Positions 5,090-64,000 of a stretch of DNA of 64,000 nt are shown in pieces (position 1 is the stretch's first letter; the number at the start of each line of letters is the position of its first letter). Position numbers and translations under genes: made by a program. The notes under the pieces were generated by a model that did no database searches, was not told the origin of the DNA, and saw only the letters and a program-made list of their open reading frames with translations. The DNA is from Pristiophorus japonicus (Eukaryota): the NCBI RefSeq assembly GCF_044704955.1, contig NC_092001.1, positions 19,530,001-19,594,000 on the forward strand, read 5' to 3'.

Positions 5090-8000
5090 GCCCAGTGTAA
5101 CATAAAAGGGAGACAGGGTCTAGTGTAATACAAACAGAGACAGGGTCTAGTGTAATATAAACAGTGACAGTGTCTAATGTAATATAAACAGAGACTATGT
5201 CTCGTGTATATGATCAGAGACAGAGTCGAGTGTAATAGAAACAGGGACAGGATCTTTTGTAATATAAACAGAGACAGGGTGTAGTGTAAAATAAACAGAG
5301 ACAAGTTCGAGTGTAAAATAAATATGGACTGGGCCTAGTGTAATATAAACAGGGACAGTGTCTCGTGTAATATAAATAGGGACAGGGTCTAGTGTAATAC
5401 AAACAGAGACACGTTCGAGTGTAATATACACAGAGCTAGGCATTAGTGTAATATAAATAGGGACAGGGTCTAGTGTAATATAAACAGAGAAAGGGTCTGG
5501 TGTAATATAAACAGATACAGGTTCTGGTGTAATTTAAACACAGAAAGGGCCTAGTGTAATATAAACAGAGACAGGTTCTAGTGTAATAGAAACAGAGACA
5601 GGGTCGAGTGTAATATAAACAGAGACATGGCTGAGTGCAAATTAAACAGAGACATAGTCTCGTGTAATATTAAAAGAGATAGGGTCTAGTGTAATATAAA
5701 AAGAGACAGGGTCTAGTGTAATATAAACAGTGACAGGGTCCAGTGTAACATAAACAGAGACAGGGTCTAATGTAATATAAACGGAGAAAGGGTCTAGTTT
5801 AACATTTACAGAGATAGTGTCTAGTATAATATAAACAGGGACAGTGTCTGCTGTAACGTAAACAGAGACAAGGTCTAGTCGAATATAAACAGAGACAGGG
5901 TCGAGTGTAATATCAACAGACTCAATGTCTAGTATAATATAAACTGTGCCAGGGCATAGGGTAATTTAAACAGAGATAGTGTCTAGTGTAACATTTACAT
6001 AGACAAGGCGTAGTGGAATATAAACAGAGACAGGGCCAAGTGTAACATAAACTGAGAGTGGGCCTTATGTTATATAAACAGAGACAGGGTCGAGTGTAAT
6101 ATAAACAGAGACCGCGTCTCGTGTAATATAAACAGTGACAGGGTCCAGTGTAATATAAACAGAGACAGGATCTAGTGTAATATAAACAGTGAAAATTCCT
6201 AGTGTAATATAAACAGAGACAGGGCCTAATGTAATATAAACAGAGAAAGGGTCTAGTGTAACATTTACAGAGATAGTGTCGAGTGTAATATAAACAGGGA
6301 CAGGTCCGAGTGCAATATAAACTTACACATGGTCTCGTGTAATATTAAAAGAGACAGGGTCTAGTGTAATAAAAACAGAGACAGGGTCTAATGTAATATA
6401 AACAGTGACAGGGTCTTGTGTAATATAAACAGTGACAGGGCCTTGTGTAATATAAGCAGAGAAGTGGTCTAGTGTAATAAAACAGAGACAGTGACTAGTG
6501 TAATATAAACATAAAGAGGCTCAAGTGTAATATAAACGGAGACAGTGTCGAGTGTAATATAAACAGAGGCAGGGTCTAGTGTAATATAAACCGAGACAGG
6601 GTCTAGTATAATATAAACAGTAACAGGGTCCAGTGTAATAGAAACAGCGACAGGGTCTAGTGTAATATATACAGTGACAGTGCCCATTTTAACATAAACA
6701 GAGATGTGTTGAGCATAACATTTATATAAACAGTGCGTAGTGAAATATAAACAGAGACATGGTCTACTGCAACATAAACAGAGACAAGGCCTTGGGTAAT
6801 ATAAACAGGGACAGGGTCTGATGTAATATAAACAGAGATATAATCTGGTGTAATAAAAACAGAGAAAGTGCCTCGTGTAATATAAACAGTGGCAGGGTCT
6901 AGTGTAATATAAACAGAGACAGGGCCTAGTGTTATATAAACAGAGACAGGGTCCAGTGTAATATAAAAAGACAGGGTCTAATTTAATATAAAAGTGACAG
7001 GGTCTCGTGTAATTTAACAGAGACAGGGCATTGAATAATATAAACAGAGACAGGTCCGAGTGCAATATAAACTGAGACATGGTCTCGTGTAATATTAAAA
7101 GAGACAGGGTCTAGTGTAATAAAAAAAGAACAGGGTCTAATGTAATATAAACAGTGACAGGGTCTTGTGTAATATAAACAGTGACAGGGTCTTGTGTAAT
7201 ATAAACAGAGACATGGTCTAGTGTAATAAAAACAGAGACAGTGACTCGTGTAATATAAACAGAAAGAGGCTCAAGTGTAATATAAACGGAGACAGTGTCG
7301 AGTGTAATATAAACAGAGAAAGGGTCTAGTGTAATATAAACCGAGACATGGTCTCGTGTAATATAAACAGAGACAGGGCCCAGTGTAATATAAACAAAGA
7401 CAGGGTCGAGTGTAATATAAATAGAGACAGGGTCGAGTGTAATATAAACAGAGACAGGGTCTAGTGTAATATGAACAGAGACAGGGCCACGTGTAATAGA
7501 CATACAGACAGGGCCTAGTGCAATACAAACAGAGACATCGTCTAGTGTAATATTAAATTAGACAGGATCCAGTGTAATATAAACAGAGACAGGGTCTAGT
7601 GTAATATAAACAGAGAAATGGTCCAGTCTAATATAAACAGAGACAGGGTCTAGAGTAACATACAGAGAAATGTTCTCGTTTAATCAAAACAGAAACAGTG
7701 CATAGTGTAATATAAACAGAGACAGGCTCAAGTGTTTTATAAACGGAGAAAGGGTCGAGAGTAATATAAACAGAGACAGGGTCTAGTGCAATACAAACAG
7801 ATACAGTGTCTAGTGTAATATAAAAAGTGACAGGATCCAGTGTAATATAAACAAAGACAGGGTCGAGTGTAATATATACAGTGACAGTGCGTAGTTTAAT
7901 AAAAACTGAGAGAGTGTCGAGTTTAACATTTACATAGACAGTGCGTAGTGGAATATAAATTGAGACATGGTCGACTGCAACATAAACAGTGACAGGGCCT

Positions 8001-9475
8001 TGTGTATTATAAACAGAGACATGGTCTAGTGTAATATAAACAGAGAAAGTGCGTAGTGTAATATTAACAGGGACGGGGTCTGGTGTAATATAAACAGAGA
8101 CAGGGTCTAGTGTAATATAAACAGAGACATGGCCTAGTGCAATATAAACAGAGACATGGTCTCGTGTAATATTAAAAGAGATAGGGTCTAGTGTAATATA
8201 AAAAGAGATAGGATCTCGTGTAATATAAAAAGTGATAGGATCCAGTGTAATATAAACAAAGACAGGGTCTAGTGTAATATAAACAGAGACAGGATCCAGT
8301 GTAATATGAACCGAGACCGGGTCTAGTGTAATATAAACAGAGACCGGGTCTAGTGTAATATAAACAGAGACAGGGCCTCGTGTTATATACATATAGATAG
8401 GGCCTAGTGCAATATAAACAGAGACATCGTCTAGTGTAATATTAAATGAGACAGGAACTGGTGTATTATAAACAGAGACAGGGTCTAGTGTAATATAAAC
8501 TGTGACACGGTCTAGTGTAATTTAAACAGAGAAATGGTCCAGTCTAATATAACCAGAGACAGGGTCGAGTGTATTATATACACAGAGACATGGTCTTGTG
8601 TAATCAAAACAGAATCAGTGCCTAGTGTTATATAAACAGACACAGGCTCAAGTGTTTTATAAACAGAGAAAGGGTCGAGTGTAATATAAACAGAGACAGG
8701 GTCTAGTGTAATATCAACAGAGACAGGGCCTAGTGTTATATAAACAGAGACAGGGTCTAGTGTAATATCAACGGAGACAGGGTCTAGTGTAATGTAAATC
8801 GAGACAGAGCCTAGTGTAATATACATAGAGACAGGACCGAGTGCAATATAAACAGAGACATCGTCTAGTGTAATATTAAATGAGACAGGATCTAGTGTAA
8901 TATAAACAGCGACAGGGTCCAGTCTAATATAAACAGAGACAGGGTCTAGTGTAATGTAAATTGAGACAGGGCCTAGTGTAATATTAACAGAGACAGGGCT
9001 GAGTACAATATAAACAGAGACATGGTCTCGTGTAATATTAAAAGAGACAAGGTCTAGTGTAATATAAACAGAAGACAGGGTCCAGTGTAATATAAACAGT
9101 GACAGGGTCCAGTGTAATATAATCAGAGACAGGGCCTTGTGTAATATAAACAGAGACAGTGTCTAGTGTAATATAAACAGGGACAGGGTCTAGTGTAATA
9201 TAAACAGAGACGGGGTCTAGTGTAATATAAACAGTTGCAGGGGTCCAGTGTAATATAAACAGAGACAGTGTCTAGTGTAATATAAACAGAAACAGTGCCT
9301 CTTGTAATATAAACAGAGACACGGTCTAGTGTAATATAAACAGAGAAACGGTCCAGTCTAATATAAACAGAGACGTGGTCTAGTGTAATGTTAAATGAGA
9401 CAGGGTCTAGTGTAATATAAACAGAGACAGGGTCTAGTGTGATATAAAATTTGACAGTGCCTAGTGTAATATAAT
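5090..9475 (+). repeat. 27-bp tandem satellite array (~160 monomers), consensus AAACAGAGACAGGGTCTAGTGTAATAT
   Basis: Head-to-tail 27-nt repeats; the 9-aa periodic ORFs (TLDPVSVYI) are by-products. Confidence 0.97.
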
Positions 9476-49065: not shown

Positions 49066-49329
49066 AATTGGACACGGAGTCAATGTGAGCTGTTTGTGGG
49101 GAATGTAAATCCTGACACTGATTCAGTGTTCTACTGAAAATCTTTTCGATATTCGGTATATCATCCCCAGCAGTATATCGGCAATCGAAGTCAAGGTAAT
49201 TTTGGGTAATGTACAGAAAACACGGATTATTAATGATGTATTATATTTTACACAGCTGGATTCAGACAGGAAAATAGGGGAGGAGTCAGTCTGCTGCTGG
49301 TGGAGGCGTGTGGCTCCCAGTCACCATCC

Positions 49330-49386
49330 CCCTCTCTCTCACACACACACACACACAAACACACAGGGGACCGGACAGTTTAAATA
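49330..49386 (+). promoter_or_regulatory. VH promoter region: (CT)n(CA)n tract and TATA-like TTTAAATA
   Basis: TTTAAATA 49379-49386, about 90 nt upstream of the leader ATG; no octamer seen nearby. Confidence 0.5.
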
Positions 49387-49474
49387 GCGTGACCCAGCTC
49401 CAGGTTCACAATCAGAAGGCGGTGTTTCGGCGCCGAGACACCTTCCCGAGACAGTTACACCGAGAGACCCGACG

Positions 49475-49520
49475 ATGGGACTTGCCCCGTGTCTCTGTTT
49501 GTTTCTGGCCTGCTTCACCT
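49475..49520 (+). pseudogene. IGHV: Ig VH leader exon (MGLAPCLCLFLACFT)
   Basis: 46-nt phase-1 signal-peptide exon, gtgagt donor at 49521, 122-nt intron. Confidence 0.9.
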
Positions 49521-49642
49521 GTGAGTATTCCTCGCTGCTTCCGTGACACAATACAAGGCGGCTTCAGATATTGTGTTTTCATTGCTATTCATTGATGTAA
49601 ATGTTCTCGAATGTAATTACAATTTATTTCAATTACTGACAG

Positions 49643-49945
49643 ATGTCCAGTCCGAAATCGTGCTGACCCAGTCGGCTTCTGTGTCGATGAAGCCCGGAGA
49701 ATCTCACAAACTGTCCTGTTCAGTGAGCGGGTTCAGTTTGAACAGCTACGACATGCACTGGTTGAAACAAGTTCCCGGGAAGGGGCTGGAGTGGCTGCTT
49801 GCTTACGATAAAGCGTCCAGTAGCATATATTACGCGCCTGGAGTGGAAGGTCGGATCATCCCTTCAAGTACATGTTCCACAACCTACATCGAGATCAAGA
49901 ATCTGAGAACCGAAGACACCGCCATGTTATACTGTGCAAGAGACC
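49643..49945 (+). pseudogene. IGHV: Ig VH exon, open frame, IgW-like (YVQS-EIVLTQ...C...W...LYCARD)
   Basis: Acceptor ag 49641-49642; canonical Cys, WLKQVPGKGLEW, EDTAMLYCAR. Confidence 0.95.
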
Positions 49946-49984
49946 CAGAGCGACCCGAACCCATCTTGGGCTCGTACAGAAACT
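49946..49984 (+). other. VH 23-RSS with mutated heptamer
   Basis: CAGAGCG + 23-nt spacer + ACAGAAACT. Confidence 0.85.
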
Positions 49985-50335
49985 GAACAAGTGCAATTGC
50001 AGCAACTTCCATCGAATTCTAGGTCAGTAACGGTGTAAAGTATATCAAGAGATGTGTTTCACCTACATTGCAAGAATGTATTTGCTACAGCAATAAACTG
50101 TTTAAGAATAAAATGCACATTAACTAACTTTGTATTGATGAAGATGATTTATCGTTACTGTGTCCAGGATTAAAAACGAGGATTCAATGAAAGCTTTAAT
50201 ATTGTAACTATGGGTAGGATTTTGGTCCATTTCTGCGCTCTCAGAAAGAATCATCATTCGACAATCAAAATCTGATAAACCTTTCTGTTGATTGAGTAAT
50301 TTATTTTCTGACAGCGTTAATCAGACAATGAGTAG

Positions 50336-50416
50336 CGTATTTGTGCGGGTCCCTGCCACTGTGGTACAACAGGGGTGTCACGGTGCTGTACACGGCGAGC
50401 GTCTCGTACAAAAACC
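50336..50416 (+). other. IGHD: DH1 (GTACAACAGGGGTGT, 50364-50378) with 5' 12-RSS and 3' 22-RSS
   Basis: CGTATTTGT-12-CACTGTG / CACGGTG-22-ACAAAAACC. Confidence 0.93.
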
Positions 50417-50636
50417 CCCCACACGGAGTTTGCTCATGCCTGCGATCATTGCCACCGCAGGAGATTGGAAGCAAACGAGGCTTGAAAACAAGCAATGGGT
50501 CGAAGTAAAATAGATAAATAAAATGACCAGCACAACTTGAAATATCTGGTTGCTGCACTCTTATGGGAGTCGGAATGCAGTTTTTTAGAGCACTGTGCAA
50601 TTTAGTCTCTGTATTTTACAGTTAACTGTCAGCTGA

Positions 50637-50705
50637 AGTATTTGGCACGGCGTGTCTCACTGTGGTACAGTGGGTGGCACAGCAATTACTGTCAATACAA
50701 AAACC
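50637..50705 (+). other. IGHD: DH2 (GTACAGTGGGTGG, 50665-50677) with 12/12 RSS
   Basis: AGTATTTGG-12-CACTGTG / CACAGCA-12-ACAAAAACC. Confidence 0.92.
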
Positions 50706-51029
50706 CCTCGGCACTAATTGAGTATGTCTGGGTCAGTGCTCGCTTTCACAATCCACTGTATCTTCAGTGAAGTCCTATTTATGTCCAGCACTGTCCTACC
50801 AGCACAGTTTAATATGGATAAACTGATCATTATTCATTGATCAGTTGGTAATTTCATGAACTGTTCACGGGTTGCTCTGTGAAATATATAACACCAGTGC
50901 ATTTATAAAGAGTGAACAATATCCATTAATACATTTATCATTTTATGAAGATCCATTGTGGTTTTACTTTGCCTCTGCGATGTGAATATTTAAACTAATG
51001 TTGGATTGCTGTCTGTTTTACGCAGTGCC

Positions 51030-51116
51030 GGTTATTGTGTGACCCAGCCCCGGGAATGTAACTCTGTGACTTTCTCGACTACTGGGTACAAGACACCATG
51101 GTGACAGTGACAACAG
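51030..51116 (+). pseudogene. IGHJ: JH (51069-51116, FLDYWVQDTMVTVTT) with 23-RSS
   Basis: GGTTATTGT-23-CTCTGTG; gtaag donor at 51117; WGQG motif altered to WVQD. Confidence 0.93.
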
Positions 51117-51450
51117 GTAAGAAACATTCACTCTTTCTGCATCTGTGGAATTTGTGTCTTTATTGTATATTTCTGTTTATTTCAATAATTCACTGATTTG
51201 CTGGGTTCAGTACTGAGATTTGTTGCTATGTTTCATTTGATTCTGCTGCAATGCTTTTATGGAATGAAACTGCTTCTCCACAGAACATGTTGCTGAGGGA
51301 TTGATCCCCAGATTGGTGTGATTTGGTGTTTATCTGCCGATGGGACTCTGTGCCTGGGTTACTTTAAACACCCAATGGTTGATAAATCCTTTGGTGTTTC
51401 TGCAATGCTTAGTCTCTGCAACATCTAATTGCTGCATATTTTCTGATCAA

Positions 51451-51458
51451 ATGCAAAT
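51451..51458 (+). promoter_or_regulatory. Octamer motif in the J-C intron (candidate intronic enhancer element)
   Basis: ATGCAAAT ~335 nt downstream of JH. Confidence 0.35.
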
Positions 51459-54400
51459 ATTATATTTAAATGTGTTTGAAAGGTGTTTCTGGGCAGAAAC
51501 ATAAAGCTTTAGATGTTATAAGTAAATGTAAGATATTTTATTGTGTTTTATTTTTTGATAATTGCAATGTCATTTATTGATCAAAAGTTGACGAATGCTC
51601 ATATACGTGAAATGTTACTGTAATGAAGAACTATATAATTAATATTTTTGTGATATGAATCAGGTTGAACTTAATACAAATTAATAGAAATAGCACGCAA
51701 TAGCACAACAATATCCTATATCAATATTAATTGATTAACATGATCCGTCTAATCACAATTCTGCTCTCATTATTTTATATTTATATTTATTTCAATAATT
51801 AATTCGTTCAGTGATAGACGATTTCGCTTAATTCTGCATTGACATGTTTTGGCAATGTTACATTTGATTCCGCTGAAACTGTTTATACAATTAAGCTGCT
51901 TCTCCACAAAACATTCTGTTGTTGTATTCAGCCGCTCAGTGCTGTGGTTTGCTGTTTATCTGCTGAGCAGAGAGTGTGCCTGGGATACTTTGAATAACAA
52001 AACTTTTGTGAAACTGTTCGGCTTTCGTGCGATGTTTATCTCAATGACATCAAACTGCTGCAAGTTTTTATGATCCGTTTAAAACTGTTTCAAAGATAAT
52101 TGTAGGCAGCCAAAAAGTAGGTTTTATAAATCAAAAATCGTCACTAAATAATGTTCTCCATCTTATTATTTAAGTGAGAAATACAGGTTCAACTATAATC
52201 TATGATTTATGGTGCACACATTTAATCCATGAAATGTTGCTGTAATTTCGAATGATACGATTAAAAATTTGCAGGTTGAAGGGGAGTTAAATAAATATAA
52301 CTCAAACAATTATAATGCGGTAATATTGCCCAATATCACTAAATATGCGATGCAATTAATATTCTTGTATTAACCATTATTCGCATCCCACAATTCTGCT
52401 GCGCACTGGTCCCAATTAACGTGAGCAGAAAATTTTAGAGGCTGGCGACAATTTCTGATTAGGTCTGAAATGATTTTAATAGCAGCATACTGATTCCACC
52501 GCAGTTCAAGGAGGGTCTGAAATTAATTATCTCCCTGTTTTAAACAGATCCACAACAGATTGTATTCAATTATCAATTAAATGCGAGTTGTAAATTACAG
52601 TTTGTAAATGTCATCAATCTGACGAGTTATTAAATTCTAAAATTATGTAATTTCTTCAATTAAATTTTTTGTTTCATAGCGAGACAATTATCATTAAACT
52701 AATCTGTACCGTTTGTAAGATGATAGCCTGAGCGTTAGACGTCGCTGGCAGTCAGAGCATTGTTCATATGATTCTATTTAAATTCAAGGAAAGTTCAGGC
52801 TGACAGACACACAAACCATTCAACGTCAAGCTGATTAATTTAATTACCATAAGGTCAATGTTATTTTTGAATTGAATAACAACATCCAGTCTCCCTTAGC
52901 TGTGCTGCAAATGGGGTAGAATTATAGAGAGTGAACACATTACATTTAAGAGTTATGGTTAACTGTGGTTCACGTTAAATTGATCACAAAATACTCTCCT
53001 CCATTTGCTCATGAAATGTCAGTGTCGCAGATGGCCTGAATGAATTCTTCCCCGCCAATATTACGTTGATCATTCTGGAAAGTAGTTTCAATAAATAGCT
53101 TAATAATTAATTTACGGGCATTGTGTGAATTACAGGAGTAAAATATAAAAAAAGATTCTCTATGTTATTAAATAGCGGAGTCTATGTTACCGACTGCACA
53201 CTTGTCTGTTGCCTGTTACTTCATAAAATATATTTTACAGGTAAGAATGAGGATAATGTTTAAACTGGAGGGCCCTGATTTAGAAAACATATAGCGTTAC
53301 AGCCCATCGATAGTTAGTGAGATGAAACAACGGCCAGACATTGAACTATTTAAAATAGTCCACTCCTAAATCCATCATGTGAAATCCACTCTGAGAAAAG
53401 AGGGAGTTTATGTTGTATCAGAGAGTTCAGAAACATGCAGAGTTTACATGTGTTGCTAGAGAGCGGGAATATATTGGAAGCTCCTGATCATTTTAACTTA
53501 TTCAAATTTGATTTTAATGAAGTAAACATAATATATTAGTCTGAATGTCTTCATCTTTTAATATGATTCTTAATATGTTAAAATTGATAAGTGATATTTA
53601 ACTTAACTGAAACGCTAATATGTCACACGTTACGAAGCAGGAACAGGATTAAAATGAATATTAACTAATTTTATTATAATGCAGTATTAGATCAGCAAAC
53701 ACCAATATTACTTTAGAGTATAATATCAGTGTGAACTCATTAACCATTAATGACCTCCCACAATTGCGTTGTATAGGATTACAGTTACTGCAACATCTCT
53801 AGGTTTGGCGAGAATTTTAAATTAAGTCAAAGATTAACTTAGTAAACAATACTTGTCTTACTCAATATGAATAAGGTGTCGCCGCAGATTTTAATGAATT
53901 AACTTCGTGTTTTGCCTCGATGATTTTACAGGTTATATTTAATTATGAAATTATATTGAAGCAGTGGCTAATCGCTTTTCAATGTAACTGTTTCCTGATT
54001 TGTTAAATTCCTATTCTGAAAGGGAGTCCCGATTAAATGCAGCAAATTACCATGGAATGAAGATTATTTCGATATAATTGTTTTCAGGATTTGTACAATT
54101 GTAGAGATGGAGGGAGACATGATTGGAAGTCGAGGAAAGTTTTCCAAATTAATATCAGTTTAATTTTTTTTTAAACGTGCACTTTTGAGATGATCGGAAA
54201 TTGACAAGAGATCAATTGTAAATCAGCTTTATTGAAACTGACAGATGGCACCGATCTATCTGCTGAGAGCAAGATTGTGCCTGTTCTCTTTCAGTGCGCC
54301 TGCTCACTGTGTGAGAATCAGGAGCCCTCCTGCTTGGCTGTAAGCCTTCCGGTTTGTCCTCTTGTATTTTGTTGAGTACAATTCGACTCATTTATTTCAG

Positions 54401-54529
54401 AAGCTTGTATCTGTGAAAAATGTGACAGTTTCAGGTTAATTTTGAGAAGGCATCTCACAATAGGGACCAATAACGCAATTTGTGGCATTCAGAAGCAGAA
54501 GTTCAAAAACACTTCTTTTAAACTGTTGA

Positions 54530-55480
54530 AGGAGCTTTAATCAGTATCTAACCCGTGTTATACCTGTCCCGGGAGTCCTGATGGGACAGTGTTGAGAGAG
54601 CTATACTCTGTATTTTAACCCGTGCTCTACCTGCCCCGGTACTGTTTGGTGCGACAGTGTAGAGGGAGCTTTACTCTGTATCTAACCCCCTGTACCTGCC
54701 CTGGGAGTGTTTGATGGGACAGTGTCGAGGGAGCTTTACTCTGTATCTAGCCCCTTGCTGTACCTGCCCTGGGAGTGTTTGATGGGAGAGTGTAGAGGGA
54801 GCTTTACTCTGTATCTAACCCCGTGCTGTACCTGCCCTGGGAGTGTTTGATGGGACAGTGTAGAGAGAGATTTACTCTGTATCTAACCGGAGATACCTGC
54901 CCTCGGAGTGTTTGATGGGACAGTGTCGAGAGAGATTTACTCTGTATTTAACGCATGCTGTACTTGCCGTCGGAGTGTTTGATGAGACAGTGTCGAGGGA
55001 GCTGTACTCAGTATCTATCCCATGCGGAACCTGCCCTGGGAGCGTTTGATGCGGCAGTGTGGAGGGAGCCTTACTCTGTATTTAACCATTGCTGTATCTG
55101 CCCTGGGACACTGGGAGTGTTGGATGGGATCGTGCAAAGGGAGAATTTATTCTGTATCTAACCCGTGTTGTAGCTGCCCTGGGTCAGTCTGTTCGTGCAA
55201 TGTATAAGGAGCTTAACTCTGTATTTATCCCGTGCTGTAACTGTCCCGTGACTCTTTCACAGGACAGTGTAGAGGCAACATTTACTCTTTATCCAACTCG
55301 TGTTCCATCTGCCGTGTTAGTGTTTGGTGGGACAGAGTAGATGGAGCTCTGCTCTCTATTTAACTAGTGCGCTACCTTATCTGGACTGTTTGACAGTGCA
55401 GTATTGACATGGCTTTTCTCGAAATCAATCCCTTGATACAGCTGAGCATAGAATGCAGAGGGAGCTTTACTCTATATTAT
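54530..55480 (+). repeat. ~67-bp minisatellite array in the J-Cmu1 intron
   Basis: Unit ctgggagtgtttgatgggacagtgtagagggagctttactctgtatctaaccccgtgctgtacctgcc, roughly 13 copies. Confidence 0.92.
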
Positions 55481-56219
55481 TTGTAATATAACAGAACTGA
55501 AAATGCTTTATCCAGGGGCATTCAAGGAGACTTAATTTGCAGCCAACTAATAAAGTTCGAGTTAGCAAGCCAGATATGTTCAAATAAATATTTCCATTGC
55601 TCCAATGAAACAACAATGCCTAAATTGAGTTTAACCTTATCGCAATATAACTGCTTCATTTTTGATGAATTGATAAACGTTTAACATTTTGAGTATTAAA
55701 TAATGATTGAATGAGATTGGCCTGATCTTGAGTTCAATTTCAGAACAAGCCGTTTCTGGAAAAGATTGAAATGGTCCAGAAAGCAGCGCCTGTTCTGATC
55801 TGATGGTAGGCTGGAAGTTAATTTGACAATTTAACTGGTGAATGTCGAACTCTTGCTTCAAATAACAATCATGGGAACGTTATGTTTGAAATCAGCATTT
55901 CGTTCAGTTGTTTTTTTTTAATGCACCAGCTAGGGACAGACGCAGGTCAGATGCAGTTTTTTGACTGGGTCACAACACAAGGCACACAGTAACTGAACTG
56001 CATTTCTGTGAAGCATTTAAAGAGATACATTCAGCCTGCGATGAATTGCCATTCACAATAATATTTCAGACTCTGTAACGGTATCCAATTGAATCGTTTG
56101 AGCCAAATTTCTCAGATCCTTTATTTTAAATGTCCCATTTCACTATAACAGACAATAAACACAGATCTGATAGTGGTGTTCAACATGATGAAGCGTTTCT
56201 AGAACCTAACCCTCTCTTT

Positions 56220-57170
56220 TAAAAAATAATCCCCTCCTTTTCCCTCTCGTTCTTTTGCCAATTATTTTAAATCTGTGACCTTTGGTTAACGACGTAATCA
56301 CCATTGGAAATCTTTTCTCCTGACTTGCTTTGACAAAACCTGTCTCAATTTTGAATACCTCTATTAGGCCTCAATTCATTTTCACTGCTTTAATACACAA
56401 TCGCAGATTTTCTAATCTTTCCACCTAACTGAAGCCTCTGGTCCTTTATATAATTCTGGGGCCTTGTCATCCATTCTAAATTGTGGAGGTCAGAATTGTA
56501 TACACTACAGCATCCGACGTCTAACCAGTGATTTGTAAAGGTTTAGCATGACACCCGTGATTCTGTATTCAAGGCCCCTTTTACAATGGCAATAACGCAT
56601 ACAATTTCGTAACCTTCTTATCAACTTGCCCAGCCACCTTCAAAGAAATGTGAATATGTACTCCCAGGACTCTCTGCTCTGGCACCTCCCTCAAATTAAT
56701 GCCTGTTAGATTATATTGCCTCTACATGTTGTTCCTCCAAAATGCATTAAATTGTATCTGGCATGTGCCTGCCCATTTCACCAATCTGTCGATGCACACT
56801 TGAAATCCGCTGCTATCCTGCTCACACATTCCCACGTTGTCAAGTTTGCATCATTCGTGAACTTGTAAACTGTATTCCCTATAAACAAGTCCAGGTAATT
56901 TATATATATAACAGGAAAAGCAATGTTGCTCATACCGACCAAAGGGCGACCCCACTACTTTTCCGTCAGAAAAACATCTGTTCACCACTGCTCGCTGCCT
57001 CCTCTCCCGCAGCCAATTAAATACCCAAGTTACCTCCATCCCTTCAATCACATGTGCTTCTATTTTCCGAATCATTCTTTTATGAGATACTTTATAAAAT
57101 GTCATTTGAACATCGATATATACCACATCTGTTGCAACACCATCATCGACCCTCTCTGTAATTTTACGGT
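56220..57170 (-). mobile_element. Degenerate CR1 fragment
   Basis: VYID...FYKVSHKRMIRKI, WVFNWLRERRQR. Confidence 0.75.
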
Positions 57171-57469
57171 ATAGACCGAGATTTCAGTATTTGACCAATA
57201 AGCCACAGGTGTTTCAGTAATCCGCACTAACCAGAATCGAGAGTTACCCATATCAGCAGTAACCAGGTTCATTAACCTTTGTCCTTCCTAGCATAGACCC
57301 GGCTGATAACCAATCGATTTATAATGTTTAAGGTTTGCCAATATTAGGTATTTAGCGAAGAAAACCTGTACTGATGTTTAGATTATTTTCGGTTCGAACA
57401 ACACAAAGAAGAGACTGCAACGACCCAGAAAGCAGTGCATGTTCTCACTGGCAGGAGGCTGGAGAATAA

Positions 57470-58165
57470 TTTGTAAAATTAAATGGAGCTTTTAAAGAGC
57501 ATCGTTCCATATAACCAGCTTTGGGAACCGTACATCATTCGGATTATTTCATGGAGTGATTCGGAAGAGGAAGATCAGGAGACATCCAATCAGTAACAGG
57601 GGACAGATCACAACTCATACTGCATCGCTCTTCCTCGAATTCTGAGCAGGAAAGAGATAGGCCCGAATCAATCCCGATTGAGATCAAACTTGAATCCTAG
57701 ATATCAGGCTGCGCAAAAGTTCCCGGTTCAAATCTGAGCGCTGAAGTAATCAATTCACATTTTAAAGGAGACTTCAACCATTTATTGGAACGTCCTATAT
57801 TTTCCTGGGAACAAAGAAGATTTAGAAGAATTCTGATAGAGGGGTTTTGGAAATATGAAGGGTTTTATGAAGGGATTCGGGAAACATATTTCCCCAGGTC
57901 GGTGAGTTGGTGAGTAAATGGCACTGATTGAATATCTGCAGCAAAGGAATGAAGGGAGAGGGTATTATTGTATTATTCTACATAGGTGCTGTTGGGACAT
58001 GAGTTGTCCTATCAGAAAGAGGGCTGCATGCAGAATCCATAACAGCTTAATAAAATTGAACGTTTGAGAAGAAGATTGGGAATTGGAAGGTGAACGGAAT
58101 TGGTGGAGAGATCGTACAGAGGCGTGATGGGCCGAATAGCCTCCTTCCGTGATTTGAAGTTGTAT
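57470..58165 (+). mobile_element. Highly degenerate CR1 3' fragment
   Basis: 3' end tgatgggccgaatagcctccttccgtg. Confidence 0.5.
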
Positions 58166-58923
58166 GACTTTATCTGTCTCGGTCATGTTTATAAACATGC
58201 CAGGATTTAAAAAAAGTTAATACAACTAGTAGATCTTGCTGTAGAAGTTGTGAGATTAGGATAATTCACCCCACCGCTATTCAACCAAGTGTATCCCCTG
58301 AAAACAATACTTGCATTTATATAGCGCGTTTAACGTAGTGAAACGTCCCAAGACGATTCATAAGAGCTTAAGGAGGTAAAATTTGATATCAGGCCACATA
58401 AGCAGTTTCCTTTAGTATGGTCAGCAGTGATTCTGGCGATTGACCAACATCTTGGTCCAAGAGGTTAGTTTAAGCAGCATCTAAAAAGTGGAGAGTTGAC
58501 TTCACTTTAATATCATGGAATGGCCTGATTCCGTGCTGCTAATAAGATTCTGAGAGCAAAAGGATGCAGGGAGGAACTCAGAATATATAATGTGAAATAA
58601 TCTACTGTAAAAGTGATTGGGGATTGAGGGGAGAGTTCCATAATAGCAGGAAGAAGTCCACGATACAATATTCCAGCATTCACTCCGTACAAAGGAGCCT
58701 GCTGGGCAGAATGCCCCTTTAAGTCTCGTGACTATACTTATGTACAAGACTGGAGTTACGTGGAGGCGTTTCACGTCGGGTCTCATAACTCCTAGTAATT
58801 CAAATGTTGACGGAGGGTATGATCGGTAAATGATGGATTTAGTTCACCACGTAGTGAAACGTTTAGTTGTTTGGTTATATTATAAGCACTGATTACAGAG
58901 TCTGCTTGGCCAATCTTTCCCAG

Positions 58924-59223
58924 CGACACCATCTGCTCCCAAACTCTATGCCCTGCTCTCCTCCTGTGAACAACCCGACACTGGCGGCACCTTCACCTAT
59001 GGCTGCTTAGCGATGGACTACTCCACGGAAATCACCAGCCTTTCCTGGAGGACAGAAGAAGCGCCGCTCACCACTGGATTGAAGACCTACCCGTCAAACA
59101 TCAACAAGGATTGAGCCGACACACTGAGCAGCCAGTTAACCATCAGCAAGTCATTGGTGGGGAGTAGCGCAATCTACTGCGAGGTTCGACGAGGTGGCTC
59201 GGTCTGGGACGTAAAAATGCCAG
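58924..59223 (+). pseudogene. IGHM: IgM constant exon Cmu1 with in-frame stop (TGA 59112-59114)
   Basis: [17 protein letters not shown]...YGCLAMDYS...TTGLKTYPS...*...SSQLTI...IYCEVRRG; ag/gt boundaries; 300 nt. Confidence 0.95.
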
Positions 59224-59239
59224 GTGAGTTCTGTGGGAT

Positions 59240-60150
59240 ACAAGGAAGGCAAATTGTGAAAAGCAGAGATGATATGTTCAACTTCTATACAACCTTGGTT
59301 AGACCAGACTTTGAGTAATGTGCACAGTTCTGGTCTCCATCTTACACTTAGAGTCATTGCACAGCTCTGGTCTTCATATCACACAGCGAGTGCTGCGTAC
59401 AGGTCTGGTTTCCACATCATATTTAGAGTATTGTACACAGATAAGGTCTCCATAACATATTAAGAGTGCTGCATACACGTCTGGTCTCCATAACACATCT
59501 TAGTGTGCATTCCGATCTCCAAATCAAAATTCGAACACTGACATAGTTCTGGTTTCCATATCACACTCAGAGTACTACGCACATGCCTGGTCTCCATATC
59601 ACATATAGAGTAATGTACACTGCTCTAATCTCCGGATTATATCAACTGTAAAGTGCATAGTGCTGGTTTCCATATTATAAGAATGATACAGAGGCACAAG
59701 GACGACACCAGAACTGAAAAATTGCAACTGTGAATAATTGCTGAACGGAGTGGGATTCGTTTCTCCAGAAAAGGGAAGGCTGAGTGGTGATCAAATGGTG
59801 GTCTTTAAAATTATGAAGCGATTTAAAGGTTAAACGTAGATAAAATATTTTGCTTGAGCAGGAGCCCGATATTGGGGCCATAAATATAAGATATTCACTA
59901 ATAAATCCAATAGGGAGTCCAGGAGAAAGTTCTTCACCCAAGGAATTGGTAAAATATGGAACTCCCTGCCGCATGGAATACGAGGCGAATATCATAGATG
60001 CGTTTCAGGCGAATCTAGATAAGTACAGGAGGGAGAAAGCCATCGAAGATTATGTTGATAGCGGCTAGGCAACAGGGAGAGAGGAGGCCCATGTGGAACA
60101 TAAGCATAGGCCTGTTGGGCCTAATGGCCTGTTTTGGTGATGTAGATTAT
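59240..60150 (+). mobile_element. CR1 3' fragment containing an internal ~38-bp tandem expansion (59312-59680)
   Basis: LYTTLVRPD..YCxQFWSP region repeated, then CR1 sequence resumes. Confidence 0.7.
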
Positions 60151-60226
60151 ATGTTAAAAACCACTTTAAAGTTCTTAATTGTTTGGATTGTAACAAATAA
60201 TCGCCATAAAATGTATTTTCTTGCAG

Positions 60227-60527
60227 GTCGTGTGGTACATCATCCAGCTGTTATCCTTACCTTGAGTTCCAAGGAAGAAATCGCCAGAAGCAGATCTGCA
60301 ACCGCCGTGTGTTCAATCATCGATTTCCATCCAAAGTCACTGACCGTGAATTGGCTGAAGAATGGACAAGTTATGAAATCGGGCTTCATCATGTGAGGTG
60401 AATGGGAACTTCTCGGCGAGTCGTCGACTGACATTCTCCGCCGCGGAATGGTTCGCCCACTCAGTCTATACCTGCCAGGTCTCTCATCAAGGAATTACCC
60501 AAAACCGAACGATCACCAGATCTCCGG
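60227..60527 (+). pseudogene. IGHM: IgM constant exon Cmu2 with frameshifting ~11-nt deletion at ~60391
   Basis: HPAVILT.SSKEEI...[20 protein letters not shown] / [11 protein letters not shown]...[13 protein letters not shown]; exon is 301 nt. Confidence 0.93.
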
Positions 60528-60839
60528 GTAAGAGACACAGCCCCGGGAAGTTCCGGATCATTCTGAGCGCTGATCTCAGTCAGGGCTTTTATCGTTATTA
60601 GTAAAAAGCACAGAACTATTTCTCATTTCTAATCATACAATTTGTTTTTCCTTTCGGTGTAAGCCCTGACTTAGGATTCCTCACGGTTCATGATTCCGTC
60701 ACTTCGCCAACGTTTGCCCTCTGCTTGCCCTTAGTCTCAGCGTTATCCTGAGTTTCCTGAGCATATTGGGAGCGACAGTCGGTGTCTCCAGGCCTTTACA
60801 CTGTAAGGGCCACTGCTAGAAATTGCTAGAATGGTTGTC

Positions 60840-62125
60840 GACGAATAAAGGCACCTTGGACTGCATGTCCACAGATCCCTAAAGTTAGCACGCCAGCTTG
60901 ATAAGTGGGTTAAGAAGGCAGACGTTATATTTACCTTTATTAGTCGAGGCATGGAATAAAATAGCAAGGAGCTTATGCTTGAACTGTATAAAACACTTGT
61001 TAGGCCGCAGCTGGAGTAGCACGTGCATTTCTGGTCACCAGGTTACAGGAAAGATATTGCTGCACTGGAACGGGTGCAGAGGAGATTTACCAGGAAGTTG
61101 TCTGGGCTGGAGAATGTTGGCTATGAGGAAAGATTGGATAGGCTGGGTCTATTTTGTTTCGAACAGAGGAGACTGAGGGGAGACCTGATTGAGATGTATA
61201 AGATTATGAGGGGCCTTGATAAAGTGGATAGGAAGGACCTGTTACCCTTGGCAGATGAGTCAACAACCAGGGGACACAGATTTAAAGTAATTGGGGCGAG
61301 GTTTAGAGGAGATATGAGAGGAAATGTCTTCATCCAGAACGTAGTGTGGGTCTCGAAATCACTACCTGAAAGGGTGGTAGAGGCTGAACACCTCACTACA
61401 TTAAAAATAAATATTGGATATGCAATGAACCTACAGGGCTACGGACCAAGAGCTGGAATGTGGGATTAGGCTGGAATGCTCTTGTTTGGCCGGCATGGAA
61501 ACGATGGGCAAAAATTGCCTCTTTCCATGCCGAAAATGTCTCTGATTTTATGACCTGCCTTTTTAGAACACAGCATTCAGTTCTGGGCACCGCACCGCAG
61601 GATGGATAAACTGGCTTTAGAGCGGGTGCAATGCAAATTAACCCGAATGATACCGGGCTAAAACGGCTAAATGATTAGGACGGGTTAAGCTTGTATTCCT
61701 TTGTGTAGAATGTGAAGAGGCGATGTAATTGAGGTGTTTACGTTGATAATTGGAACTGATGTGGTAGATAGCGAGAATATATTTCCTCTGGTGCGGTACT
61801 TCAGGACCAGGGACAGAACCTTAAAAGTAGATCTTCACCATTCAGGGGTAATGTCAGGAAGGATAATTTCACACACAGTCTCGTGTACATCTGGAACTCT
61901 CTCCACCAACCTCCCCCCCCCCCCCCCACGGACCTCCCAAAGCTGTTGAGGGAAGGGGTCAATTGAACATGTCAAAACTGAGATTGATAGATCTTTGTTA
62001 GGCAAGGGTGTAAAGGGTTGCACAACCAAAGCGGGTAGATGGTGTTGAGGTAGATATCAGCCATGATCTGATTGAATGGCAGAACAGGATGGATGGGCTG
62101 AATGGACTTCTCCTGTTCCTATGAC
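60840..62125 (+). mobile_element. Two consecutive CR1 3' fragments
   Basis: HFWSPGYRKDIAALERVQRRFTR, TRGHRFK; second 3' end at ~62125. Confidence 0.85.
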
Positions 62126-62841
62126 ACTATTACTGTCCTGCATTTATATTTCTTCCTTACTCTCTCTCACTAGACATGATAAAAGCTCACTAATGACAGA
62201 AATATAACAAAAAACTACTTCACATCAGTATTGCAATTTATTCCACATGACAAAAGACCCGTTGAAATTCCCTTACCACGACCTTTTACTTCTGCTCTGC
62301 CGTGGGAGGGGCGGGGGCTGCGACTGGTTCCTGCACATTTTCATCAACCCCAAAATCACAAGACACCAGAAAATTAACTTTGTTTCCTGTTGCAACTATA
62401 ATCCTGGATTTGATTTGACACTCGTTTTGAACCAATGCAATTTCCATGTAGAGCTCTTCATCCTGGGGGTTGAGCCATTATATTGAGGGGAAATGCGTTC
62501 GCGCAGAAGGATCGATAGACGGGCGTAAAGGAGCAAGGATTTTCGGGACGAGCGCTATTCAGTGCATAACACAATTGCACCGAACGTTATTCAATGTTTT
62601 ATGTCGGGTCTTTGCCTCACAGCCGATCACAGGTGGCTCTGGGTGCAAATACACAGGAAATGTTAAAGAGACTCCCGGGATGGCTGCCAATTCGTTGTCC
62701 TTCCAATAATGATGGTTGTTAAGCAACAACGAGAGGTTAATATCTCAAAGGTGATTTATTCTACTTTTGGGAGTTAAGCAGAATGCTGCTATCCTGACTC
62801 TGGAGATGAAGCTTTGCTTGACTTTCATTTCTGCTTCACAG

Positions 62842-63147
62842 AAGATTCCTCGTGCAACGATCCAACAATCACTCTTTCGCCGCCGTCACTCGAGCATGTC
62901 TTAATGGAGGCGACAGTGACCTTAACCTGCATCGTGTCGAATGCTCCTTTTGGAGTCACCGTGTCCTGGGAGCGGAAAAAGGACATTTTGAAACCAGAGA
63001 ATCACGCTGAACAGGGAGAGGCCGATAGTGTGATCATCAAGTTAGACATCTCGACACAAAACTGGCTGAGTGGGATTGTGTTTGACTGCGTGGTGAGCCA
63101 TCGGGATATGCCGACTCCGATCAGAGGTTCCATCCACAAGGAAATGG
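62842..63147 (+). pseudogene. IGHM: IgM constant exon Cmu3 (open frame)
   Basis: [34 protein letters not shown]...[16 protein letters not shown]; ag/gt intact. Confidence 0.95.
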
Positions 63148-63663
63148 GTGAGCGGCGTGATTGTTGGAACACGTGAGAGGCTGTGACTATTCCCGGTCCT
63201 TGTACATGGGCCAATTCGTTCTAATAAGTATTTTAATAGATTACTTTGATAATTCAAATGGTAATCCCACGAACTAAATACTCTGGGATATGGGATGATG
63301 CATTTAAGGGGAAGTTAGATAATTGCAGGAGGGAGAAAGCAATAGAAGGACATATTGCGTGGTTTCGATGGTGAGCTGGGAGTAGGCTCGTGTGGAGCAT
63401 AAAAGTTGGTATAAATCAGTTGGCCGAATGGCCTGGTTCCTAGCAGTGAATCCTATGTAATTTTCCAGTACAACTCTTCAAGCTCCCAGAGAGAAGGATT
63501 TTATTCCATTTTGATCTGGGCTGAAAAACTGGACATGCCACAGAGGCGAAATTGTGAATCCTTAAAAATTCCGCGCAAACCACATATCTCGCGCATTTAA
63601 ACACCGGTGTCATTGTCTCTGGAAGTCTCCAGTTCATTGATGTTTATTGTAATTGATCTGCAG

Positions 63664-64000
63664 CTAAAGATCCGCGGGAACCGGTCGTGTCTGTCCTCCT
63701 GCCCTCGGCAGAAGAAATCTCCGCTCAGAGGTTGGTCAGCCTCACCTGCTTAGTGAGAGGTTTCTCCCCCCGAGAGATCTTCGTCAAGTGGACCGTCAAT
63801 GACAAGCCGGTGAATTCGGGCAACCACACGGACACCGAGGTGAAGACGGATAACAGCAGCAGCTCTTTCTTCACGTACAGCCTGTTATCCATTGCAGCCG
63901 AGGAGTGGGTCAGCGGTGCTTCTTACTCCTGTGTGGTAGGACATGAAGCCATCCCCTTGAAGACCATCATCAGAACAGTCAATAAATCCAGCGGTAAACC
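63664..64000 (+). pseudogene. IGHM: IgM constant exon Cmu4 (open) into the start of the secretory tail; truncated by window end
   Basis: [35 protein letters not shown]...[12 protein letters not shown]...VNKSSGKP; internal G|GTAAA donor for the TM form at 63993/63994. Confidence 0.96.

Follow-up and report, generated by a model that had tools for sequence, protein, structure and literature searches.

An IgM-type cluster with an IgW-type leader and V segment in the germline of the sawshark Pristiophorus japonicus

Shark IgM and IgW clusters are usually treated as autonomous units, each with V families of its own. The DNA considered here, a stretch of 64,000 nucleotides of Pristiophorus japonicus (assembly GCF_044704955.1, contig NC_092001.1, positions 19,530,001 to 19,594,000, forward strand; hereafter the window), ends in an immunoglobulin (Ig) heavy-chain cluster in which leader, VH, two D segments and one J stand unrearranged before four Cmu exons, with the secretory tail and transmembrane (TM) exon immediately past the window end. 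The recombination signal sequences (RSSs) follow the pattern V-23 / 12-D1-22 / 12-D2-12 / 23-J, the VH carries the expected motifs of framework regions 1 and 3 (FR1, FR3), and a codon split T+AT across the leader and V exons encodes the Y of FTYVQS. An earlier reading of the letters alone (the original prediction) had placed leader, VH, unrearranged segments, four Cmu exons and a 7.8-kb J-C intron where they are indeed found, and had proposed an IgW-type leader and VH on an IgM cluster in the germline. The features are as follows, in window coordinates.

49175..49474, + strand: promoter and 5' untranslated region (UTR) of the apparently foreign module, family-specific, with a TATA-like TTTAAATA near 49379; upstream extent not fixed
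49475..49520, + strand: leader exon, IgW-type (MGLAPCLCLFLACFT) in a 15-residue comparison with IgW-type and IgM leaders
49521..49642, + strand: leader-V intron, aligning to neither IgM nor own IgW clusters
49643..49945, + strand: VH exon, frame open, assigned to the IgW V clade by trees and identity to horn shark W26
49890..49985, + strand: putative junction interval between IgW-type module and IgM backbone (FR3 end to RSS nonamer)
49946..49984, + strand: V 23-RSS with damaged heptamer
50364..50378, + strand: D1, IgM-type, with 12-RSS (heptamer 50357-50363) and 22-RSS (heptamer from 50379)
50665..50677, + strand: D2, IgM-type, with a 12-RSS on each side
51069..51116, + strand: JH with 23-RSS; FR4 reads WVQDTMVTVT here and IgM-type WGQGTMVTVT in siblings
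51117..58923, + strand: J-C intron, 7.8 kb, IgM-type throughout by long-block alignment to IgM clusters
58924..59223, + strand: Cmu1 with an in-frame stop
60227..60527, + strand: Cmu2 with a frameshifting deletion
62842..63147, + strand: Cmu3, open
63664..64000, + strand: Cmu4, open

The copy in the window bears four lesions and lacks the intact RSS, WGxG J and open C exons of a functional heavy-chain gene: its V heptamer is CAGAGCG (CACAGCG in 14 of 14 siblings), its J reads WVQDT, a TGA at 59112-59114 interrupts Cmu1 and an 11-nt deletion near 60390 breaks Cmu2. It is a dead gene; its family is not dead. A V search of the same genome, with 150 of 443 candidates scored, returned 15 family Vs at 78-100% identity, the next V standing at only 59%, and for each of the 15 a Cmu3 match lies 12.4-13.8 kb farther downstream in the same orientation. 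A P. japonicus IgM V on record is 94% identical to a canonical V of this genome. The promoter and 5' UTR stretch has 16 family places in the genome. Because long blocks of the clusters, spread over 12 contigs, are mostly 86-97% identical, these clusters are paralogues. V and Cmu1-4 frames are open in 13 of the 15 clusters, the broken ones being the window copy and that at G000:C27:19.72 Mb. Seven (the first C3807 copy, C687, both C90 copies, C1478, C3347 and C2057) are by inspection free of visible lesions in RSS, J, C, tail and TM, and the other six open clusters have a weak nonamer, an altered J, a pre-joined or missing D, a TM defect, or a TM exon beyond the stretch read. Among the 11 closest open siblings the ratio of non-synonymous to synonymous rates (dN/dS) is 0.26 for Cmu2, 0.27 for Cmu3, 0.43 for Cmu4 and 1.18 for V, where changes lie mostly in the complementarity-determining regions CDR1 and CDR2 and in the FR3 loop. 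Intact siblings would be expected to rearrange V-D1-D2-J within the cluster and to yield IgM, in membrane and secreted form, whose binding framework is of IgW type.

Further family remnants occur in the genome. A 16th copy at G000:C25:3.28-3.29 Mb (L091, L092) has a VDJ already joined in the germline and marked by deletions, and the Cmu1 behind it contains a stop. Partial joining or loss of D is seen at G000:C645:1.01 Mb (D-J joined), C158:1.8 kb (D1-D2 joined) and C3:330.68 Mb (single D). At G000:C1198:1.02-1.05 Mb (L073, L074, L097) open family-type Cmu1-4 exons follow an intron whose minisatellite appears expanded, and no V, D or J was found in the 20 kb upstream. Orphan family- or IgW-like V fragments at G000:C12:55.63 Mb (L078) and C8:32.83 Mb (L090) end after GLEW and are 74-77% identical to the 5' half of the family V.

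The assignment of the V was made against the curated horn shark IgW V, W26 (P83907). With W26 as query the top 15 of 66 matches are the 15 family Vs (62-68%; the window copy 63%, intact siblings 62-68%); the sawshark's own IgW Vs follow at 47-55% and its canonical IgM Vs at 38-52%. In a first tree of 49 Vs (C20 model), which included seven of the 15 family copies and two catshark-type Vs, the family and catshark Vs make up one clade (support 97/96) nested in the IgW group (96/87), while 17 canonical IgM Vs are gathered in a separate one (100/97; 97-99 across runs). Under LG, with the long cow branch removed, family and IgW join at 100/99, and in a tree of leader plus V the family is placed with W26 and the own IgW Vs at 96/93, the wider IgW group being unresolved. 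Thirty V columns are diagnostic, and the family is IgW-type at 24 and IgM-type at six; none of 10 outgroup Vs has K39, G64, P72, E84 or I85. In the leader, 8-9 of 15 residues agree with four IgW-type leaders, 3-5 with seven IgM leaders and 9-10 with the two catshark relatives. The family thus groups with IgW Vs and lies outside the IgM V clade (a place with IgM being formally unrejected at AU p 0.11-0.14, in the approximately unbiased test treated below), its Vs having neither the long FR3 of ASKDxSNNIF type nor the MRxAISL leader of canonical elasmobranch IgM. The V could have fallen inside the IgM V clades, which would have told against the original prediction, and it did not; leader residues, V trees and W26 matches agree, and an IgW-type leader and V in the germline of an IgM cluster is supported by the sequences. 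Among the residues first put forward as IgW features, KPGESHKLSC is also present in bony-fish VH and is hence ancestral, not IgW-specific. Protein searches with the family V gave mostly bony-fish matches (one shark among 58, none among 39 longer proteins), and searches of PDB and Atlas gave generic Ig matches only, with no isotype named.

The sawshark's own IgW-type Vs lie on six of seven contigs that bear a non-mu C exon, and all seven omega-type C matches are on contigs or chromosomes other than those of the family. The C13 cluster, the only one read through, has V, D, D, J and C exons, its J and first C exons resembling by eye W26's J and a ray model of the same V type. These seven clusters (G000:C13:186.99-187.05 Mb, C3873, C3019, C2079, C3281, C3915, C221) are very widely spaced, with about 11 kb from V to D1 on C13 and 34-140 kb from V to the second C exon. 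Their Vs form a long-branch clade of two CDR2/FR3 types, and that of C3281 is germline-joined to J.

Sawsharks stand in one of the two main shark divisions and catsharks in the other, the two having split very roughly 250-300 million years ago. The same V is found in the catshark Scyliorhinus torazame, where scyTo_0014239 shares 81% identity with the window V and 85-89% with intact siblings, and the next tag, scyTo_0014240, on a contig of the same size (159,436), is a Cmu model. A 573-residue chain from a public record (P0277), in the same 90% cluster as the scyTo_0014240 model, consists of a family-type leader and V (86% to an intact sibling), a CDR3, an IgM J, Cmu1-4 and a secretory tail; its make-up is what a rearranged transcript would encode, suggesting that the subclass is expressed in a catshark-like animal.

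Downstream of the V, the cluster is of IgM type. D1, D2, J and the J-C intron align in blocks of 66-80% identity to canonical IgM clusters, whereas alignment to the IgW cluster gives matches only in V, J and repeats. A scan of the J-C intron for a change from IgW-like to IgM-like homology, as originally proposed, finds it IgM-type along its length, with 66-75% identity in long blocks to two IgM clusters on C23 and IgW matches only at repeats. For D1-D2 the score is z 32 against IgM and z 1 against IgW, for the first 500 bases 3' of J z 83 and -1.5, and for V-D1 only z 5 and 2-4; D2-J has no match to IgW, the canonical cluster used having D2 joined to J, which precludes the IgM comparison. Just 3' of J the family is 75-79% identical to canonical clusters, and the canonical pair 73% to each other. 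Upstream, the leader intron is 53-54% identical to that of two canonical IgM clusters (z about 0), which are 85% identical to each other, and local alignment of the promoter is not significant against either canonical IgM (z 1.0-1.9) or own IgW clusters (z 2.6), the control being the promoters of two canonical IgM clusters, which align at 76%. Between these two regions, the stretch right behind the YYC codons reaches z 12-14 against four IgM clusters and z 3-5 against four of IgW type, the last IgW-diagnostic residues end near 49896 and the IgM alignment begins at 49891. Ancestry would thus change at the 3' end of V or in its RSS, a position we bracket at about 49890-49985. Since D1, D2, J and the intron align to IgM and not to IgW, only the promoter-leader-V module appears to be foreign.

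The explanation that we consider probable is that the promoter-leader-V of an IgW cluster became attached to the RSS-D-D-J-C backbone of an IgM cluster through a single germline crossover, located in the conserved FR3 end or RSS, and the product was then amplified. The capture would be an old germline event, probably earlier than the split of the sawshark-like and catshark lineages, and its likeliest route would be ectopic homologous recombination in the shared FR3-end and RSS sequence. A germline RAG cut at the heptamer may be an alternative route, because PMC4279169 ascribes germline joining to RAG acting in germ cells. The captured cluster would later have been amplified to 15 members, whose backbones would still have traded sequence with canonical IgM clusters. 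That the transfer ran from IgW to IgM, its age and its route are all inferred.

Several results weigh against this explanation. The AU tests, on about 100 columns, reject neither a family placed with IgM (p 0.112, 0.138) nor an IgW group without the family (p 0.161, 0.193), and adding leaders left them non-rejecting. Many IgW-shared V residues are ancestral, the V tree has no holocephalan V, and the IgW labels, which are partly inferred, depend on a single curated entry, on gene models and on the linkage of Vs to non-mu C exons. The IgW clusters of the same genome match the promoter and leader intron no better than IgM clusters do, and no donor DNA was identified among them. Cmu1 has a dN/dS of 0.86 among the same 11 siblings. 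The adjacency of V and Cmu in the catshark was read from tags and contig size, not DNA, and the suggestion of expression comes from the catshark-like chain P0277. Finally, all 10 clusters sampled from the P. japonicus genome group together in the Cmu tree (100/100), the family Cmu joining own canonical Cmu and not the catshark Cmu that bears the same V; monophyly of the family Cmu across species was tested and rejected (p 0.0002-0.002). A second run of this tree dropped sturgeon and two faulty gene models.

With Cmu monophyly rejected, a single origin needs later exchange of backbones, and such exchange would explain why the Cmu tree follows species and not V type. The nearest neighbour of the family Cmu (85/86; 99/95 on Cmu1-2) is that of a cluster with a canonical V at C23:65.44 Mb. 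This cluster, at G000:C23:65.43-65.44 Mb (L079, L080), is a germline-joined IgM cluster with canonical V and promoter and family-closest Cmu and J-C intron, and it looks like a further recombinant of V and backbone. V modules and backbones have thus changed partners more than once, and the junction now seen may date from the latest exchange.

In the strongest rival the family V descends from the ancestral VH of both isotypes and never left IgM, the canonical IgM V is derived, and the backbone was homogenised among mu clusters. This would account for the ancestral FR1 motifs, for a family V closer to bony-vertebrate Vs (51-60%) than to shark IgM Vs (42-53%), for an IgW-only clade left standing by the AU tests, for 5' non-coding DNA that matches no IgW cluster, and for a Cmu that follows species, backbones having been exchanged in any case. 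It is nevertheless rather unlikely: three trees nest the family among IgW Vs, with the ray IgW-type Vs lying farther from shark IgW Vs than it does, derived residues and the shortening of FR3 are common to family and IgW, and the leader is IgW-type. The Cmu regions that bear this V, not being monophyletic across the two species, could also reflect two independent captures of related IgW V modules, in a sawshark-like lineage and in catsharks, but this is improbable given that the Vs of both species form one clade (97/96, 99/96) and that their 85-89% identity is far above that to any sampled IgW V (own IgW 51-61%). Lower still stands a germline isotype switch, in which an entire IgW VDJ unit was joined to Cmu in the J-C intron, essentially as the original prediction had it. 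IgW-type V and leader, the DYLDYWG common to some family Js and the IgW J, and the somatic IgW-IgM switching described in PMC4279169 and PMC6795676 are in its favour; such a switch should leave its junction 3' of J with D and J of donor type, and the D1-D2 and post-J scores above, the IgM-type D segments with their RSSs and the J FR4 leave it standing only if all of these were later overwritten, which makes it very improbable. A junction at 49890-49985 contradicts it and points to replacement of promoter-leader-V; the breakpoint in or near the J-C intron and the germline counterpart of isotype switching are accordingly given up, the event being apparently old and amplified with only the 5' module foreign. 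Least credible of all is an assembly chimera, or convergence of an IgM V: the case was made from assembled sequence, but the layout is shared by 15 diverged paralogous clusters on 12 contigs (13 with open frames), which rules out an assembly artefact or haplotype duplication, a second species and a rearranged chain carry the same V, and the leader and 24 of 30 columns are IgW-type.

The proposed capture of an IgW module by an IgM cluster can be set beside known systems. The elasmobranch IgM minicluster is described as V-D1-D2-J-Cmu1-4-sec-TM (PMC5192425, PMC2191167), and the family shares its layout, single C region, RSS pattern, D, J, intron, four Cmu exons, secretory tail and TM exon; it differs in a leader and V outside the canonical IgM V clade and in a promoter and leader intron without alignment to canonical clusters, and Cmu1, Cmu2 and the V heptamer are damaged in the window copy. 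The IgW cluster has omega constant exons, with six to eight domains (PMC6795676). Family Vs share V clade, leader type and shortened FR3 with IgW VHs (W26, bamboo shark and ray models, own C13 type), but none of the 15 is linked to omega C exons or an IgW-type J, their D and J are IgM-type, and they are 51-61% identical to own IgW Vs. Somatic IgW-to-IgM switching in the nurse shark (Zhu 2012; Zhang 2013; as described in PMC4279169, PMC6795676) likewise puts an IgW-type V on a mu constant region, whereas the family is germline, unrearranged and multicopy, with its junction 5' of D1 and not 3' of J. An origin of IgNAR by transfer of a NARTCR V into an IgW cluster has been proposed (PMC12227049, PMC4279169); it too would be a heritable transfer of a V module between receptor loci, but here donor and acceptor would both be heavy-chain isotypes of the conventional kind, and the position of the junction can still be narrowed down. 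IgM1gj has a germline-joined VDJ and has lost Cmu2 (PMC5192425), and in the family V, D, D and J are split and Cmu2 is present. Nurse shark pseudogene groups 6-8 have also been described (in literature among PMC12227049, PMC5192425, PMC4279169, PMC6795676 and PMC2435157). All 15 clusters have their own J and Cmu, which sets them apart from TAILV. The latter is an orphan VH in the T cell receptor alpha/delta locus without D-J-Cmu of its own, and TAILV sequences were not part of the V tree.

A divergent VH family of the nurse shark, reportedly treated by Rumfelt in 2004, is said to be orthologous to the monotypic VH family of the horn shark. That second horn shark family (PMC2191167) resembles the present one, as does the divergent nurse shark VH, in standing beside a main IgM family, but it is single-copy there and has 15 copies in P. 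japonicus, the comparison being by description only. The family V may be this monotypic second VH family, and may already be in print as a divergent VH family. The literature search found no description of a germline cluster of IgW V and Cmu, primary papers that possibly cover this V family being outside its reach.

In the remainder of the window, a motif scan of 1-49400 found no Ig-like exons, which rules out a neighbouring IgW donor there; long frames and repeats in that part resemble retroelement fragments and minisatellites. A 27-bp minisatellite of about 162 copies (5110-9474) produces spurious long open reading frames, and retroelement-like fragments are scattered over 9600-45000. Within the J-C intron a 67-bp minisatellite (54531-55108), common to canonical IgM introns, occupies a switch-region-like position. 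Elsewhere in the genome further Ig clusters, presumably IgNAR-like from their motifs, lie at G000:C23:64.67 Mb (L093), where V and J are germline-joined, and at C2090:0.23 Mb (L095, L096).

An IgW-type V that is inherited together with a rearranging IgM backbone, and is conserved in distant sharks, means that V modules can cross isotypes in the germline, and offers a mappable example of V transfer of the kind proposed for the origin of IgNAR. It also means that a mu transcript with an IgW-like V is not necessarily a product of somatic switching and that V alone cannot call the isotype. The fullest form of the proposal, which is put forward only tentatively, is that of a hitherto unrecognised, ancient hybrid IgM subclass, in which an IgM cluster received an IgW promoter-leader-V with the join precisely at the V recombination signal, possibly through germline RAG, and which was kept in both major shark lineages, is expressed, and was multiplied to 15 genes in this genome. 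If this is true, V modules and D-J-C backbones of shark clusters would reassort heritably across isotypes, and there would be a route from separate clusters towards a V pool shared by IgM and IgD.

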